Below are positions 2 through 30,155 of a DNA stretch of 64,000 bases, one piece after another. Source of the stretch: a virus. Where the stretch lies: the IMG/VR virus record IMGVR_UViG_3300021061_000001. One strand, given 5' to 3'. Every line of letters starts with the position of its first letter. The stretch's first letter is position 1. The position numbers and the translations under genes are program-made. Below the pieces are notes generated by a model. The model was not told the origin of the DNA. It saw only the letters and a list, made by a program, of their open reading frames with translations, and did not search any database.

Positions 2-1231
2 GACCTCACCGAACTGTCGGTTCCCGACCTGGCCGACATGATCTACGTTGTGGACGATCCGGCTGGCACGCCTCTGTCGCGCAAGATGTCCTTGAACAGG
101 CTTCTCGGTCTGCGGCAGTCGGTCTGCGAGGGCAGGCTGACGCTGGTCAGTGGGCAGCCCCTGTACGAGCCGACGAAGTTCCTCACGCCTTCCTCTGTGA
201 ATAGCACGACGGACATCGCTACGTTCTCTTCGGCGCATGGGCTCGTGACAGGAACTCTCGTGAAGCATCTTGGCCCGGGCATCTCCGGCATTACGGCCGG
301 CACGACATCCTGGATTCTGGCACAGTCAAGCACCACGGTGAGCTTTCATTCTTCATTGAGTGACGCCCTCTCGGACACTAACAGGAGAAACATCACAAGC
401 ACCACGATCTCCGGTGGCGCTTCCCTGCGGTTTATCGGCGTACAGAGCGGCACGCTTTATTTCACTCCGTATGTAGGCAACTGGATTGGGCTCTATGACG
501 GCACGCGCTGGAAGGTGCATTCGTTCACCGAACGCAGTTTGACGCTTGTTGGTCTTACGAGTGGCACGCCCTACGACGTGTTCATCTACGACAATGCTGG
601 CACGCTGACGTTGGAGTTATCGGCGGCGTGGGCGGACGACAACACGAGAACCGATGCCCTAGCCACGCAAGATGGCATACTCGTGAAATCCGGCGCGCCT
701 ACCAGGCGTTGGCTTGGCATCATCTACCCAATCGGAACGAATAGGGCTGATGATTCCGAAAGGAGCCGCCACCTTTTGAACGGTTACAACCAGGTGCCGC
801 GTTCAGTCTACATATGTCCGTCGTACAGGGACGATAACGCCTCGACGACATTTACTCATGGTGCGACTGGCGGCGAGGCTGGCGGCTGGACGGACGCCAC
901 AGAAGAAAACGTCAGTGGTGCCGTCAGCTTTCTCAGCGACGGCAGGAGCGCCTGTCGTTTCTGTTTCCAAGCCAGTGCCAATGCCATTTTCCGTGTCGGC
1001 TTACGAATCAACCCAGACACGCCGAGCAACATCGTAGCGAGTTCTGGAGGTGGCACTGGCAACATGGCCATGGCGACCTGGGCCGGCCTTCTGCCTGCTG
1101 GCCAGAACGGCGCCGCTGGAGTTGTTTTCGCCAGCGCCACCACCACGGCCTACAGCGTGGATTTTTCGCGAGGCTCCATATCCCTGCGCGATGTGCCCCT
1201 GACTCATCTCGAAGGTGTCGTGTATGGCTGA
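2..1231 (+). CDS. fibre/tail-associated virion protein, 5' end outside window
   Basis: The frame is open from the window edge, with no stop before the listed Met at 38. The 3' end overlaps the next gene start (GTGTATGGCTGA). It sits directly upstream of the fibre-paralog cassette. Confidence 0.6.
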   Translation, partial: DLTELSVPDLADMIYVVDDPAGTPLSRKMSLNRLLGLRQSVCEGRLTLVSGQPLYEPTKFLTPSSVNSTTDIATFSSAHGLVTGTLVKHLGPGISGITAGTTSWILAQSSTTVSFHSSLSDALSDTNRRNITSTTISGGASLRFIGVQSGTLYFTPYVGNWIGLYDGTRWKVHSFTERSLTLVGLTSGTPYDVFIYDNAGTLTLELSAAWADDNTRTDALATQDGILVKSGAPTRRWLGIIYPIGTNRADDSERSRHLLNGYNQVPRSVYICPSYRDDNASTTFTHGATGGEAGGWTDATEENVSGAVSFLSDGRSACRFCFQASANAIFRVGLRINPDTPSNIVASSGGGTGNMAMATWAGLLPAGQNGAAGVVFASATTTAYSVDFSRGSISLRDVPLTHLEGVVYG

Positions 1232-25494: not shown

Positions 25495-26430
25495 TTAGGA
25501 CTTGGCCAAAATCCGTGATTCATCGAAACCGCAAATCGATTCGTGTGCTTCTCGGCACGTCTTCACTGTGCCGACGACCGGCATGTAGTAAACTCGCTTG
25601 GTGCCGCCATCAGTTCCAACGAGCCACTGGTCGCCGTGGGCGTCTCGCACCAGGCAGCGCGGTGCCGCTCCCTTCCGGCATTTTTCGCGGTCGGCGTCTA
25701 CCAGTTCGGCTTTGGATTCCCAGAGGTATTTTTCGGGCGTCATTCGCTCGATGAGTGCTCGGCGAACTTCGGCGTTCGATTCGGTGCGAATTTCTTCGAC
25801 CGTAATTTGTTCGGGACAGAGAATCGCGTAGGCCGGGACCAGAACGCCGTGCCAGAAATACAGGTTCTCGACATCGTTTCTTATCGCCGGACCATCCTCG
25901 CAATGCAGACGGCGAACGTCACCGACCGACTCGGTTTTCACTTCGGGTTTGGCTATCCAGAACAGCGTCTTGTCGGTCCAAAACAGACACCAGCACCCTC
26001 CCAGGAAGGCGTCTAAGAGCGGCATCGACCACGACTGAACTTTTGGCTTGTTGTCACTACCGAAGTAGGTGGTTGACAACCAAGAGAGTTCCCACCAGTA
26101 CCACCGACAACCAGTCAGCACACACCATTGCGCGAAACGTCGAAACTTACCGTTCAGAACGTCCCGAGCGTTCCGAGCGTCCCGAGCGGCCCGAGCGGCC
26201 CGAGCGGCCCGAGCGTCTTTCGGCAACCGCTTGCAAACGTCTTCTGCGATCTCGAAGACTGTTTGGCGGAGATCGATATCCTGGCACCATTCGCCGACTA
26301 AGCGTTTCACCTTCCGCTCGATTCCAAGCGTGCGACAATACTCGGCAAGAGCCGCATTGACGGTATCCTCGTCCAGGATGCCGGGATAGTTGCACGCCTC
26401 AACGTAACGGTCGAACAGTTCGCCTTTCAT
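25495..26430 (-). CDS. DUF6745-like protein (311 aa)
   Basis: The C-terminal LHCEDGPA ... YFWHGVLVP ... IRTESNAEVRRALIERM pattern matches my memory of that family. Confidence 0.7.
   Translation of the reverse strand: MKGELFDRYVEACNYPGILDEDTVNAALAEYCRTLGIERKVKRLVGEWCQDIDLRQTVFEIAEDVCKRLPKDARAARAARAARDARNARDVLNGKFRRFAQWCVLTGCRWYWWELSWLSTTYFGSDNKPKVQSWSMPLLDAFLGGCWCLFWTDKTLFWIAKPEVKTESVGDVRRLHCEDGPAIRNDVENLYFWHGVLVPAYAILCPEQITVEEIRTESNAEVRRALIERMTPEKYLWESKAELVDADREKCRKGAAPRCLVRDAHGDQWLVGTDGGTKRVYYMPVVGTVKTCREAHESICGFDESRILAKS
26163..26216. repeat. 9-bp x6 tandem repeat inside the CDS
   Basis: The unit is (C/T)CCGAGCG(G/T). It encodes ARAARAARAARDARNARD on the minus strand. Confidence 0.85.
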
Positions 26431-26437
26431 CGCACGC

Positions 26438-26863
26438 CTAGCCTTTTCGCAAGAGTGAGCAGAGCAAGAGCCGCTGTTGCCGGAACCACCGCGTTACCTC
26501 CTGCTCGGAGACGTTCCAAGCGGTTGTCCAGCCGATCGGCATCCCCATCAGCCATTCCACGAAGGTAGCGTTCAGCCTCTTCCGCTGTGAGGGCGGGAGC
26601 GAGGTGCGGGTAATCGCGCAGGATTTCGGCCCAGCGTTCTCGCTCTCCTGGGCCTGGTGGGAAAGGTCCGAAGTCCAAGATGCAGCATCCCGGTTCAGGT
26701 TGCCGCCCTGGGTGCTGTGCTCGTCCACTCCCAGTCGCCTGCCGTCGTGAGCATTCGGTGTCGCCCAGACTTCCGTCTGGCCTGGTAGCCTCGCTCCACC
26801 AGCCACCGCCGTTCCTTTTGCCGACCCCCGAACAGAGCGAGATGTAGGAACGTAGAGCCACAT
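26438..26863 (-). CDS. small protein with W.TP.A.D and LN..FVEWLMG.P.GWT motifs (methyltransferase-associated tail type)
   Basis: ATG follows directly after the SWIM gene stop (TGAATG). Contains VWATPNAHDG and RLNATFVEWLMGMPIGWT. No methyltransferase catalytic domain is present. Confidence 0.6.
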   Translation of the reverse strand: MWLYVPTSRSVRGSAKGTAVAGGARLPGQTEVWATPNAHDGRRLGVDEHSTQGGNLNRDAASWTSDLSHQAQESENAGPKSCAITRTSLPPSQRKRLNATFVEWLMGMPIGWTTAWNVSEQEVTRWFRQQRLLLCSLLRKG

Positions 26864-27160
26864 TCACTGCCTCCTGGGTTGCGGCGGCATCAGCCCAAGC
26901 TCGACCAGCGCGCGCAGGTGCTTGCACCCCGCGTAGTCCACGCCCTCGCGGCGAAAAGTGAAGTCGGGGCAGCCGCAGTGGTTGCCGTGGCCGTTCGTGT
27001 AGAGGTCGTAGCTGACGTGGCCCAGCCTGGGGTCGGGCCGCGTCAGGCGCCAGGCCGGTTCCGCCACGCGCGGGTCCGGGGACAACCTCTCCAGCTTGTA
27101 CCAGCGGCGGCCGATCAGGACGGCCAGGGCCACCTTGGGCCGCGTAGGCGTGCGTGTCAT
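26864..27160 (-). CDS. SWIM zinc-finger protein (98 aa)
   Basis: HCGCPDF ... GCKHLRAL fits the C.C..nC.H signature. ATGA overlap with the upstream gene. Confidence 0.65.
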   Translation of the reverse strand: MTRTPTRPKVALAVLIGRRWYKLERLSPDPRVAEPAWRLTRPDPRLGHVSYDLYTNGHGNHCGCPDFTFRREGVDYAGCKHLRALVELGLMPPQPRRQ

Positions 27161-27339
27161 TCGTAGAACTCCAGATTGATCTTCAGGCGGTCCGCATCGG
27201 CCCGGTAGGCTGGCGTGGCGCGGATCTCCACATAGTTTTCGGACCCGGTGACACCGTGCAGGGCGTCCAGAAGGATCAGGCGGCACGCATTCCAGTTCGG
27301 CGCCTCCAGCGCATACTCGATCATCTCGCGCATCGACAT
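27157..27339 (-). CDS. small protein (60 aa)
   Basis: ATG at 27339. The upstream part of the track ORF is Arg/Gly-rich and unlikely to be coding. Confidence 0.45.
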   Translation of the reverse strand: MSMREMIEYALEAPNWNACRLILLDALHGVTGSENYVEIRATPAYRADADRLKINLEFYE

Positions 27340-27359: not shown

Positions 27360-28025
27360 TCACAGCATCACGCTCACTTTCTTCTTGCCCCGCCCCGCCT
27401 CCAGGAACAGGCAACTCTCCCGCCCCCGCAGCTTTGGCTTCACGCCGGATTCCAACTTCTCCTTCACGGCCTGCAGCGTCTCGGTGTCGCGCCACCGGAG
27501 AGCCCGCTTGATCGCCTCGGGGATCTGGTCGCGGATCGGCTCCTCCACCAGGTCGGCAATCTCCTGGGCCAGTTTGTTCTTGAGCCGCTTCACGCCTTCA
27601 TCCGGTGCGTCCTTGACCATGACTTCGCCCCACGCCTCGAAGCCCATCCATACCAGCATCGGCACACGCTTGTCCGCCTTCATCCGCTCGCGCAGTTCGT
27701 GGTAGAACTCGCGAATCTGGGCTACCGGGGCGGTCAGGAGCGGGCCGAGCAGTTCATCGGCCTTGGCGTCGTGAGCGTCGTACTCGTCCTTGTCGTGCGC
27801 CAGGCACATGCCGACCACGGCCTCGATCCACTTCTCCACCATCTCTTTCACCTGCATGTTGGTTCTCCGTTTCTTGCTTGGGAAACGCATCGCGTAGCGG
27901 ATCAGGGCACCGACATCTCGCATCCTCTGGACCGGCACACTGCGGCCACCCTTCCACCTCATGCGCAGGTCCCAGAGGAATTTGCCGGCTTCCAGGCTGG
28001 CCATCACGGCGGAACGAACGCCCAT
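27360..28025 (-). CDS. hypothetical protein (221 aa)
   Basis: ATG at 28025 overlaps the upstream stop (TGATG). The C-terminal two thirds are helical and charged. Confidence 0.6.
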   Translation of the reverse strand: MGVRSAVMASLEAGKFLWDLRMRWKGGRSVPVQRMRDVGALIRYAMRFPSKKRRTNMQVKEMVEKWIEAVVGMCLAHDKDEYDAHDAKADELLGPLLTAPVAQIREFYHELRERMKADKRVPMLVWMGFEAWGEVMVKDAPDEGVKRLKNKLAQEIADLVEEPIRDQIPEAIKRALRWRDTETLQAVKEKLESGVKPKLRGRESCLFLEAGRGKKKVSVML

Positions 28026-28459
28026 CACTTCTTGACCCTCCTCCAGTCCAGGCCCATCTCCAGGAACGTCCTTTTCGCCAGCTTCGCCGTGCCGTGCGAA
28101 ATCTCCGCCATCTCGGCTACGTAGTGCTCCAGGACCTCGAAGGGCGGGTTCTTCGGCAGGCGCAGGATCAGGTTCACGACCAGCTCGATCTCGCATTGCA
28201 GGCACCGCTCGCGGCGGGCCACGATCTGGCGGAACTCGGCCACGGTCGGCGAGTTTCGCGAGTGAAACCCGTCGTGGCAGGGGCACTCCAGGGGATGGCC
28301 AAGCGAGATCAGGTTAATGCGGATGTCCAATCTGCTGCCGCCCCCATGCCCTTTCGGGCGGATGTGGTGCGGCTGCCTGGCCCGGCACTTGGCCAGGCAA
28401 AACGCGCACGTTCCGGGGCCGCGAAATAGATCAAGGGTTTCCTCGCTCGTGTAGATCAT
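28025..28459 (-). CDS. HNH-fold nuclease-like protein (144 aa)
   Basis: The motif string is CAFC ... HHI.PKGHGGG ... NLISL ... CPCHDGFH. Confidence 0.6.
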   Translation of the reverse strand: MIYTSEETLDLFRGPGTCAFCLAKCRARQPHHIRPKGHGGGSRLDIRINLISLGHPLECPCHDGFHSRNSPTVAEFRQIVARRERCLQCEIELVVNLILRLPKNPPFEVLEHYVAEMAEISHGTAKLAKRTFLEMGLDWRRVKK

Positions 28460-28487: not shown

Positions 28488-29036
28488 TCACTCCTCGATC
28501 TCGCCGATCTTGCTCGTCAACTGGCGGATTGTGCTCGGCAACGAAGCCATCTCTTTCTTCAGCGCGTTTGGCAGCAACCGCTCTCGGTAGTTGCGTGTCT
28601 GAAGTTGCTCGTAAACCTTCATGAACTGAGCCCTGACGACGGCGACCGGCTCCTTGCCGTAGCAGAGCGCGTGAATGCCCATGACCTGCATTGCCTCGAC
28701 CACCAGAGGCGGCAGGTCTTTGCAGCCGCGCTCGATCGAGCCGTCAACCTCCGGGTCGATCTTGCCGATGCCTCGCCACGCGATCGCCCACGCTTCCGCC
28801 GGTGTCGGTTCCTTGTCCGATCGCATCACTTCGGCGGCAGCTTCTCTCAACTCGCTGACCGTCGGGAACGTCGCCCACTTGTGCTCCAGCACCACTTTTT
28901 TCGCCGCAAGCCTCAGCGCCTCGATCGGTATGTCGCCGAGCAGGTCCATGTAGACCTCGGCCAAGTCGGCCGATGGCGGTTTGCCGATCGCGGCGCCGAT
29001 GTAAGCCAGCACTTGAGCCAATTCCAGCCTGGTCAT
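28488..29036 (-). CDS. helicase-loader-like protein (G39P-type N-terminus), 182 aa
   Basis: The N-terminus (E.a.vLayI.aa....p...l.evy.dlL.D....al..A.kk......FPtv.El) resembles the replicative helicase loader family. It sits downstream of the replication-organiser-like gene. Confidence 0.5.
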   Translation of the reverse strand: MTRLELAQVLAYIGAAIGKPPSADLAEVYMDLLGDIPIEALRLAAKKVVLEHKWATFPTVSELREAAAEVMRSDKEPTPAEAWAIAWRGIGKIDPEVDGSIERGCKDLPPLVVEAMQVMGIHALCYGKEPVAVVRAQFMKVYEQLQTRNYRERLLPNALKKEMASLPSTIRQLTSKIGEIEE

Positions 29037-29881
29037 CTCGCTTCCCCTCGCGCAACGAACTCTTCCAGGCCAGCAAAGAGTTTTCCGTTGCTGTTGCGAT
29101 CGTCGTACTTGCCCTCGATGAGTTGCGCCACGGTGTCGCTACGCAGAAACCAGTCGATGTCAGCCCGCCACCCTCGACTGCCGCCGCCTTGGCAAAACGA
29201 ACTCGCGGCAACTTTCGCCAGCGCCGCCTCGACATTTCCCAGCCAGCCGCTTTGCTTGATCCGAAGGCGGTACTCTTTCCGCCGTTTGTCCGTCACGACC
29301 TGGCAGTGCGAGACGTTGGGGATTTCGTTCCATCGAGCGATCAGCGTTTCGATGGTTGGCGCCGCCGCCGCCGGTGTTGTCTCCTGCTCTTGTTCCTGCT
29401 CTTGCTCCTGCTCTTGTTCCTGTTCTTGGCTTCGGACACCCTTTGAAGGGGCTTCGAGGACCCTCATGGGAGGCAGGTGATAACGGTCCCCGTATCTGGC
29501 GTAAAACGCCTTATAGAATGGGGACTTATGGTAAGGTTCCAGCGCCCGCACGATGCCCTTAACCCGGTTGTCCTTTGGTTGGAGCGATTCCCCGATCTGG
29601 TAGCGCGCCATTTCGGGTATCCAAACGACCTCTGAAGCCCTGTCGTACTCCGCGAAATCCGCTTCGCGGACCCTTTGAAGGGCCTTCCAAGCGGCTTCGC
29701 GGCCCAGCCCGAGGTCATGAGCGATCATGGGCAGCGGCAGGTAATAAAGGCCGATCATGTTGGCGAGCCGGCAGGTGAGGAGGTAAATCGCCACGAGCTG
29801 GGTCTGTGGTCCAGCCCTGCGAAGTTTGAGGCCGGTTTCGCCCGTCCAGAATGACGGGGCGACTTTGCAATACTCTCTCAT
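29033..29881 (-). CDS. replication organiser/initiator-like protein (282 aa)
   Basis: ATG at 29881. Two domains are joined by an (EQ)n linker. The gene is coupled to the loader-like gene. Confidence 0.6.
   Translation of the reverse strand: MREYCKVAPSFWTGETGLKLRRAGPQTQLVAIYLLTCRLANMIGLYYLPLPMIAHDLGLGREAAWKALQRVREADFAEYDRASEVVWIPEMARYQIGESLQPKDNRVKGIVRALEPYHKSPFYKAFYARYGDRYHLPPMRVLEAPSKGVRSQEQEQEQEQEQEQEQETTPAAAAPTIETLIARWNEIPNVSHCQVVTDKRRKEYRLRIKQSGWLGNVEAALAKVAASSFCQGGGSRGWRADIDWFLRSDTVAQLIEGKYDDRNSNGKLFAGLEEFVARGEAR
29383..29430. repeat. 12-bp x4 tandem repeat in the linker of the replication-organiser-like gene
   Basis: The units are CCTGCTCTTGTT / CCTGCTCTTGCT / CCTGCTCTTGTT / CCTGTTCTTGGC. 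Confidence 0.85.
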
Positions 29882-29930
29882 GGTCCATCCACCGCAGCCT
29901 GCGGTCCCTCTCGTTGGGCGAAAAGGGTTC

Positions 29931-30155
29931 CTACGTGCGATCCTTGAGCAGTCCGCGCTTGAGCAGTTCCCAGGCGCAGACCATGGTGTTGAGCTGGCCG
30001 AAGCGGGCGTAGCATTCGGCATCGGTGGGCATCCTGCCCTGCACCCGCCGAGCCTCCCGGATGAACTCCAGGAGGATCTCGGGGGTGCAGCGGGCGAAGC
30101 TCCCCGTGTCCGCGGGGGTGTCGCTCTTGGCCGCGTTGGGGTCGAATAGCCTCAT
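29931..30155 (-). CDS. small protein (74 aa), possibly DNA-binding
   Basis: Coupled to the upstream gene (ATGA) and helical in composition. Confidence 0.55.
   Translation of the reverse strand: MRLFDPNAAKSDTPADTGSFARCTPEILLEFIREARRVQGRMPTDAECYARFGQLNTMVCAWELLKRGLLKDRT

Follow-up and report, generated by a model that had tools for sequence, protein, structure and literature searches.

Two overlapping frames in a phage genome as the probable remnant of a two-frame C5-cytosine DNA methyltransferase gene

The M.EcoHK31I methylase of E. coli HK31 (Lee, Kam and Shaw 1995, NAR 23:103) consists of two chains, alpha and beta, which according to the published accounts are encoded in two overlapping frames of the same strand (PMC2836561; PMC3404938). 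In the same accounts alpha carries motifs I-VIII and X, beta carries motif IX, and both chains are needed. Another naturally split C5 methylase is M.AquI, whose chains must also associate, and which is divided after motif VIII such that motifs IX and X are found in the second chain (PMC3404938). M.HhaI (PDB 2uyc/10mh) is a monomer; its target-recognition domain is folded, and one frame encodes the whole protein including motif IX. In the present work we consider a locus in a 64-kb stretch of phage DNA, called the window in the following, where two overlapping frames each end in a methylase-associated motif. We argue that it derives, by an internal deletion, from a two-frame C5-cytosine DNA methyltransferase gene of the M.EcoHK31I type, a reading to which we assign a probability of roughly 0.78.

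The window has a GC content of 64% and is recognizable as phage DNA by its portal gene, its tail genes and a DnaD/O-like replication gene (29033-30022) on the strand of the locus. An earlier note on this sequence had pointed out two overlapping open frames, A at 26438..26863 and B at 26427..26927. These coordinates and the quoted strings were confirmed, with both frames on the minus strand, and the features are collected in Table 1. Frame B is the -1 frame relative to frame A; it is given as 26427-26927 in the ORF list and is open from stop to stop over 26430-27182. Frame A begins with MWLYVPTS, contains a single WxTPxAxDG repeat (WATPNAHDG), and ends in a tail of the form LNxxFVEWLMGxPxGWT (LNATFVEWLMG...GWT). 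Frame B contains the strings FPPGP...HLAPA and ...GNAVVP. The bases that encode the repeat in frame A are read in frame B as a non-conserved linker, and those of the frame-A tail motif are read there as RG.ADG...RLD.

The earlier note had also stated that frame B lacks a plausible start, and this statement has to be revised. There are two candidates, GTG 26867 and GTG 26861, and the latter is located 8 nt from the GGAGG element and is homologous to the methylase start of the relatives (MNVAL...). The double start in the window reads GTGAATGTGG, and the TGA of the upstream ORF directly precedes the ATG of frame A. This upstream ORF (26864-27286, minus strand, 140 aa) is in the same reading frame as frame A and has a C-x-C...C-x-H pattern with a weak match to the SWIM zinc finger (PF04434, E 0.054). 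On the other side, the DUF6745 gene (25495-26430, minus strand) contains about six tandem 9-bp units (CCCGAGCGN-like) at 26160-26215, which encode an (A-R-A)n run. An ORF of 144 aa at 28025-28459 on the minus strand has paired Cys/His motifs (C-x-x-C ... H-H ... C-x-C-H) and no PHROG match; it may be an HNH-like or zinc-binding nuclease.

Table 1. Features of the two-frame locus in the window. Nucleotide positions are those of the whole stretch; residue ranges are from gap-tolerant alignments of the two products to six full-length relatives.
Feature	Position	Strand	Remarks
Frame A ORF	26438..26863	-	141 aa; ATG at 26863, TAG at 26438-26440; beta-type (+1) frame
Frame B ORF	26427..26867	-	alpha-type (methylase) frame; ~144-146 aa; TGA 26427-26429
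GGAGG ribosome-binding site	26870..26874	-	common to both staggered starts; 6 nt to ATG 26863, 8 nt to GTG 26861
Methylase motif I remnant, frame B	26817..26843	-	I-S-L-C-S-G-V-G-K; aligns with family consensus LxLCxGxGG
Lone WATPNAHDG...W repeat module, frame A	26675..26767	-	66% identity to P0005, 57% to P0002
Head of frame B tail, FPPGP...W..IL...P.LAPA	26592..26663	-	P0005: 44% identity over 80 aa, E 3e-10
Frame A tail motif, R-L-N-A-T-F-V-E-W-L-M-G-M-P-I-G-W-T	26525..26578	-	motif-IX-like
GNAVVP (motif X), frame B	26481..26498	-	G and N invariant across family
ATGA overlap	26427..26430	-	frame B stop overlaps ATG of next gene (25495-26430, DUF6745)
Common start, frame A	residues 1-8		gap-tolerant alignment
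One WATPNAHDG module, frame A	residues ~16-65		gap-tolerant alignment
Tail, frame A	residues 73-141		gap-tolerant alignment
Start and motif I (consensus LxLCxGxGG), frame B	residues 1-15		gap-tolerant alignment
Linker opposite repeat, frame B	residues 33-65		gap-tolerant alignment
Tail, frame B	residues 66-146		gap-tolerant alignment

The assignment of both end strings to methylase-linked proteins, made in the earlier note from the sequence alone, is upheld by profile searches with the two translations. In PHROG, frame A matches phrog_1008, annotated as DNA methyltransferase, with an E-value of 4.4e-10 and phrog_27243 with 2.1e-9, and frame B matches phrog_29583, also annotated as DNA methyltransferase, with 2.6e-9 over the last 125 profile positions. 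With family HMMs built in this analysis from 17 related loci, the E-values are 2.9e-19 for frame A and 1e-16 for frame B, the latter in two pieces (profile positions 5-29 and 252-351). The similarity of both frames to methylase families is far above chance. Pfam gave nothing relevant for either full frame or for the tails alone, and a tblastn search with frame B against cultured phages gave no match.

The pieces also occur in single-frame proteins. P0005 (186 aa) combines, within one frame, the repeat module of frame A (E 1e-18) with the tail of frame B (E 3e-10), and P0002 the module and the tail of frame A (E 6e-15 and 4e-13). Since these two proteins carry them, both tails are real protein sequences elsewhere. 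The nearest full-length relative of frame A is P0014 (508 aa), which has the same start and a near-identical stretch ahead of the tail motif.

The earlier note had asked which of the two frames is used at homologous loci, and the relatives turn out to keep both, at full length. Across more than 40 related loci of viruses and bacteria, a C5-cytosine methyltransferase ORF (frame B) shares its entire length with a +1 ORF (frame A); the intact relatives span 0.9-1.5 kb. Their frame B contains the PF00145 motifs I-VIII (with E-values of 3e-28 and 1e-41), a disordered linker and a GN(A/G)VVP tail, and their frame A has an MxWLYxPS start, WxTPxAxD repeats that vary in number across the family, and an LNPxFxEWLMGxPxGW end. 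The two starts follow a single ribosome-binding site, staggered so that the +1 ORF begins within 2-5 nt of the methylase start; the double start often reads ATGAATGTGG, and RTGTGG is also seen. Two examples can illustrate the arrangement. In the Microcystis phage Mae-JY24, the annotated CDS of 398 aa consists of motifs I-VIII, about 190 featureless open codons and a frame-B-type tail, and the +1 frame codes for a protein rich in repeats, with a frame-A-type tail at its end. In the IMG/VR contig L002/L003 the overlap is complete: ORF-A (397 aa) begins with MTWLYIPS, to be compared with MWLYVPTS in the window, ORF-B (398 aa) matches PF00145 with 3.2e-28, and the starts are 5 nt and the stops 8 nt apart. 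A scan with ORF-A gave 35 viral loci, which reach down to 26-34% protein identity, and in nearly all of them one frame matches ORF-A and its -1 frame matches ORF-B, over the full length. The same layout is found in further viral, metagenome and bacterial loci, including Chromobacterium, Vicinamibacteria and Rhodopseudomonas.

Among the 26 loci first examined (0.9-1.4 kb), 24 have no stop codon in either frame, loci with a GC content of 47-54% among them, and the third frame contains 10-34. Shuffling of synonymous codons leads to an expectation of 6-23 stops in frame B given protein A and of 2-10 in frame A given protein B, to be compared with zero observed in 15 of 15 loci (P <= 0.005 in most of them). 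For the family, the suggestion in the earlier note that a frame has stayed open by chance is therefore rejected. The complete two-ORF overlap is the normal architecture of a large family and not an accident of the window locus.

A few variants contain pieces of the two frames fused by indels (L006, L050, L058, L072 and P0038). At L050:608-1909 the LNPxFVEWLMG tail shares its frame with a catalytic domain that has P-S-Q instead of P-C-Q, and the GNAVVP tail is found in a separate ORF. At L072:2217-3821 a single frame contains the catalytic domain, FAPGP...PDLAPA, LGPRFVEFLM and, after an inserted stretch of about 150 aa, GNAVVPQ. Single-frame chimeras also occur, L006 and P0005 having a frame-A body with a frame-B tail and P0038 a frame-B N-terminus with a frame-A body. 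These three look like products of indels or deletions, and they could be natural variants or sequencing errors.

We have also scored conservation region by region across the 17 diverse loci, and the dominance was found to alternate between the frames along the gene. At the extreme N-terminus frame A is more conserved than frame B (W3 is invariant and P7 is present in at least 90% of members), and in the catalytic part conservation is higher in frame B. In the middle part frame A is conserved, with its WxTP repeats, and frame B is not. In the tail, the FxPGP...P.LAPA stretch is conserved in frame B and not in frame A, the LNPxFxEWLMGW stretch is conserved in both (with scores of 4.6 for frame A, whose most conserved stretch it is, and 3.2 for frame B), and in the GN(A/G)VVP stretch frame B again is the better conserved one. 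The invariant residues of the frame-A tail are L, N, F, E, L, M, G, P and W. The substitution rates of the codon phases change accordingly: given in the order A position 1 = B position 2, A position 2 = B position 3 and A position 3 = B position 1, they are 0.088, 0.241 and 0.146 in the N-terminal part, 0.286, 0.294 and 0.373 in the middle part, and 0.121, 0.220 and 0.190 in the tail.

In terms of structure, the ORF-B profile matches M.HhaI with 2.6e-25 over motifs I-VIII. The ORF-B model of a full-length relative is confident at residues 1-200 and for the C-terminal helix, with residues 201-319 disordered, and it superposes on M.HhaI with a Z-score of 18.5 and an rmsd of 3.2 for 195 aligned residues (model 1-398 on chain 10-326). 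Since the model thus reaches the C-terminus of M.HhaI, the tail helix in it occupies the position of the motif X helix. Together with the invariant G and N, this is in line with the assignment of GNAVVP to motif X in the earlier note. The ORF-A model has a mean pLDDT of only 49.5, with confidence only for the EWLMG helix and a last helix. Such a poor model fits a chain that would fold on its partner, and proves nothing in this respect. For its LNPxFxEWLMGxPxxW tail we presume a likeness to motif IX of M.HhaI, and the invariant helix of this sequence is probably motif IX. Searches of Pfam PF00145 and of PDB profiles gave no alignment of the ORF-A tail with motif IX, and when the ORF-A alignment or the tail alone was compared with PDB profiles, only chance matches to the MS2 coat or nothing resulted.

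We now come to what is left of this gene in the window. The alignments place both products on the two ends of the full-length relatives, the initial 8-15 and the final ~125 residues. Motifs II-VIII, including the catalytic PCQ (motif IV) and ENV (motif VI), are absent from frame B of the window, and the alignment places them in the deleted part. A catalytic-domain HMM gave no match in any of the six frames of the 64-kb window, in agreement with the remark in the earlier note that there is no catalytic domain nearby. From the alignments, the absent motifs and this HMM result, it follows that the locus is a phase-preserving deletion derivative. Since nothing but part of motif I and the tail with motif X is left, and no catalytic domain is matched, the window copy is to be regarded as a remnant and not as a working member of the family. 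No close relative of the locus, with or without the deletion, was found above ~60% identity in the viral, genome and metagenome collections, so the deletion is deduced from distant relatives (at most ~60% identity), and no other mini versions were found in these collections either.

On this basis, the following scenario can be proposed. In the intact relatives one stretch would be read in two frames, from starts that are a few bases apart and share a single ribosome-binding site. Frame B would give an alpha-type protein with the catalytic large domain (motifs I-VIII), a disordered linker and a FxPGP...W..I...P.LAPA...GN(A/G)VVP tail with the motif X helix, and frame A (+1) would give a beta-type protein with the MxWLYxPS start, the WxTPxAxD repeats and the LNPxFxEWLMGxPxxW helix. 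By analogy with M.EcoHK31I, the alpha and beta chains would assemble into the active enzyme. In the window phage, some 260-370 codons would have been lost with the reading phase kept, and the deletion would have spared the shared start, the motif I remnant, one repeat and both tails. That both frames are still open in the window would then be due to an ancestor that was free of stops in both and to a loss in phase. In the absence of the catalytic cysteine motif, the alpha remnant presumably cannot methylate. The family-invariant tail residues are all intact in both frames of the window copy, a single near-invariant proline of frame A excepted, which suggests either that the deletion is recent or that the small products are under some selection. 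The window copy is most likely a dead relic, and a residual role for the two small products is possible. Of the three options listed in the earlier note, the decayed methyltransferase came closest; what it missed was that the enzyme is of a two-frame, and presumably two-subunit, kind.

One alternative, which we consider unlikely, is that the mini locus is alive, that is, that the 141-aa beta protein and/or the ~145-aa alpha remnant is selected for another role, for example the binding or modulation of a family methylase of the host or of another prophage. Such a role would be consistent with the intact tail residues and with the setting of the locus, since both frames are intact in a translationally coupled early operon, with the GGAGG element, the upstream stop-start junction and the downstream ATGA overlap. 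The codon composition can also be quoted here. The GC contents at codon positions 1, 2 and 3 are 0.59, 0.57 and 0.72 for frame A, 0.72, 0.59 and 0.57 for frame B, and 0.64, 0.47 and 0.80 for the reference genes. The GC3 check proposed in the earlier note thus gives a value close to the genomic one for frame A but not for frame B, and GC by codon position favours frame A. Against a living locus stand the missing second mini version in the three collections, the missing partner catalytic domain in the 64-kb window, and the alanine that replaces, in the frame-A tail motif, a proline conserved in at least 90% of the members. In addition, the openness of the second frame is not significant in the window alone: with the codon usage of the window itself, P is 0.06 for B being open given protein A and 0.02 for A being open given protein B. 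The openness in the window alone is thus only weakly beyond chance. By the earlier note, its proposal would fail if frame B had no significant similarity to methyltransferase C-termini and an openness matched by shuffled sequence; the similarity is significant, and the openness is marginal in the window.

A related view, also improbable in our estimate, is that the full-overlap family constitutes a distinct two-subunit variant, with a +1 product that covers the whole gene, a staggered start and target recognition by the WxTPxAxD repeats, and that the mini pair has been kept as still acting, for instance on a family methylase of the host or of a competing prophage, which it would bind or block.

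The deletion could also be an artefact of assembly, in which case the two-frame methylase gene of the real phage would be of full length. The record seems to come from a metagenome or virome assembly, the protein is present on only two contigs, and the variable number of internal repeats in the family could favour such an error. However, the sequences that meet at the main junction, the motif I region and a repeat module, are dissimilar, and both frames and the flanking genes read cleanly through. We therefore consider an artefact very unlikely.

Even less can be said for a programmed -1 frameshift that joins A to B into one protein with the repeat module and the FPPGP...GNAVVP tail, as suggested among the options in the earlier note. 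Protein P0005 and locus L006 do combine a body of the frame-A type with a frame-B tail in one frame. Frame A is preceded by a good ribosome-binding site, and the TGA of frame B shares bases with the start codon of the next gene. On the other hand, P0005 is a single-member cluster, and both P0005 and L006 resemble simple indels. Frame B has a start of its own, homologous to the methylase start, and in the relatives two complete ORFs with adjacent starts are open from the common start to the common end, which would be needless for a product joined by a shift. Finally, there is no X_XXY_YYZ heptamer in frame A, and it is on this missing slippery site that programmed frameshifting was rejected.

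That GC-rich DNA keeps the second frame open and that the motif likeness is a coincidence would be in keeping with the 64% GC of the window and its marginal openness, but it is practically ruled out by two-frame homology, with E-values of 1e-9 to 1e-19 against independent profiles for both frames and of 1e-10 to 1e-18 in pairwise comparisons with single-frame proteins.

The preferred reading, an internally deleted two-frame methylase gene, means that the odd double motif in the window is the footprint of such a gene minus its catalytic core. The family behind it is large. Counted as representatives at 50% identity, the ORF-A profile matches 42,739 sequences at E <=0.001, 27,250 at <=1e-10 and 6,001 at <=1e-30. 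There is no Pfam family for the frame-A protein, and the longer homologues of frame A of the window are without a Pfam domain, with one exception. Its treatment in the databases can be seen from two phage records. Gp46 of Alfacinha1 (L092, OP131590.1 33915-35048) is annotated in the +1 repeat-protein frame, yet is named cytosine-specific methyltransferase, and gp68 of phi1026b (L093, NC_005284.1 45804-47105) is annotated in frame B, the true PF00145 frame. In both records the partner ORF is unannotated. Since gene callers choose one frame, the records miss either the methylase or its probable partner. A full overlap of 300-500 codons on the same strand, conserved down to ~26-34% identity, is unusual for phages and bacteria, and the two-frame methylase family is a good natural system for studies of dual coding.

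It remains to compare the locus with the known systems. Like M.EcoHK31I, as far as the published description goes (PMC2836561), the family distributes its motifs over two frames, with motifs I-VIII and GN(A/G)VVP in frame B and the motif-IX-like helix in frame A. The two frames of the window overlap over 26438-26863, and the overlap is complete in 24 of 26 relatives. According to that description the beta ORF of M.EcoHK31I is said to lie inside the alpha gene, whereas the second ORF here covers the whole gene, and a further difference from the enzyme as described there is that it has WxTPxAxD repeats opposite a non-conserved, disordered alpha linker. Of the motifs of the large chain of M.EcoHK31I in the same accounts, frame B of the window retains no more than part of motif I and the tail with motif X. 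A plasmid search for relatives of M.EcoHK31I gave one unrelated Sphingomonas match only. With M.AquI the family would share the need for two chains to associate, but motif X is kept here with the catalytic chain. With M.HhaI, the frame-B product of a full-length relative shares the large-domain fold and the C-terminal helix according to the model, the difference being that M.HhaI has everything in a single chain. Members of the family in cultured phages are gp68 of Burkholderia phage phi1026b and gp46 of Acidovorax phage Alfacinha1, which are full-length double ORFs with the same starts, repeats, tails and frames; they are intact at 377-433 codons, compared to 141-146 in the window. The two-frame principle has been in the literature since 1995.
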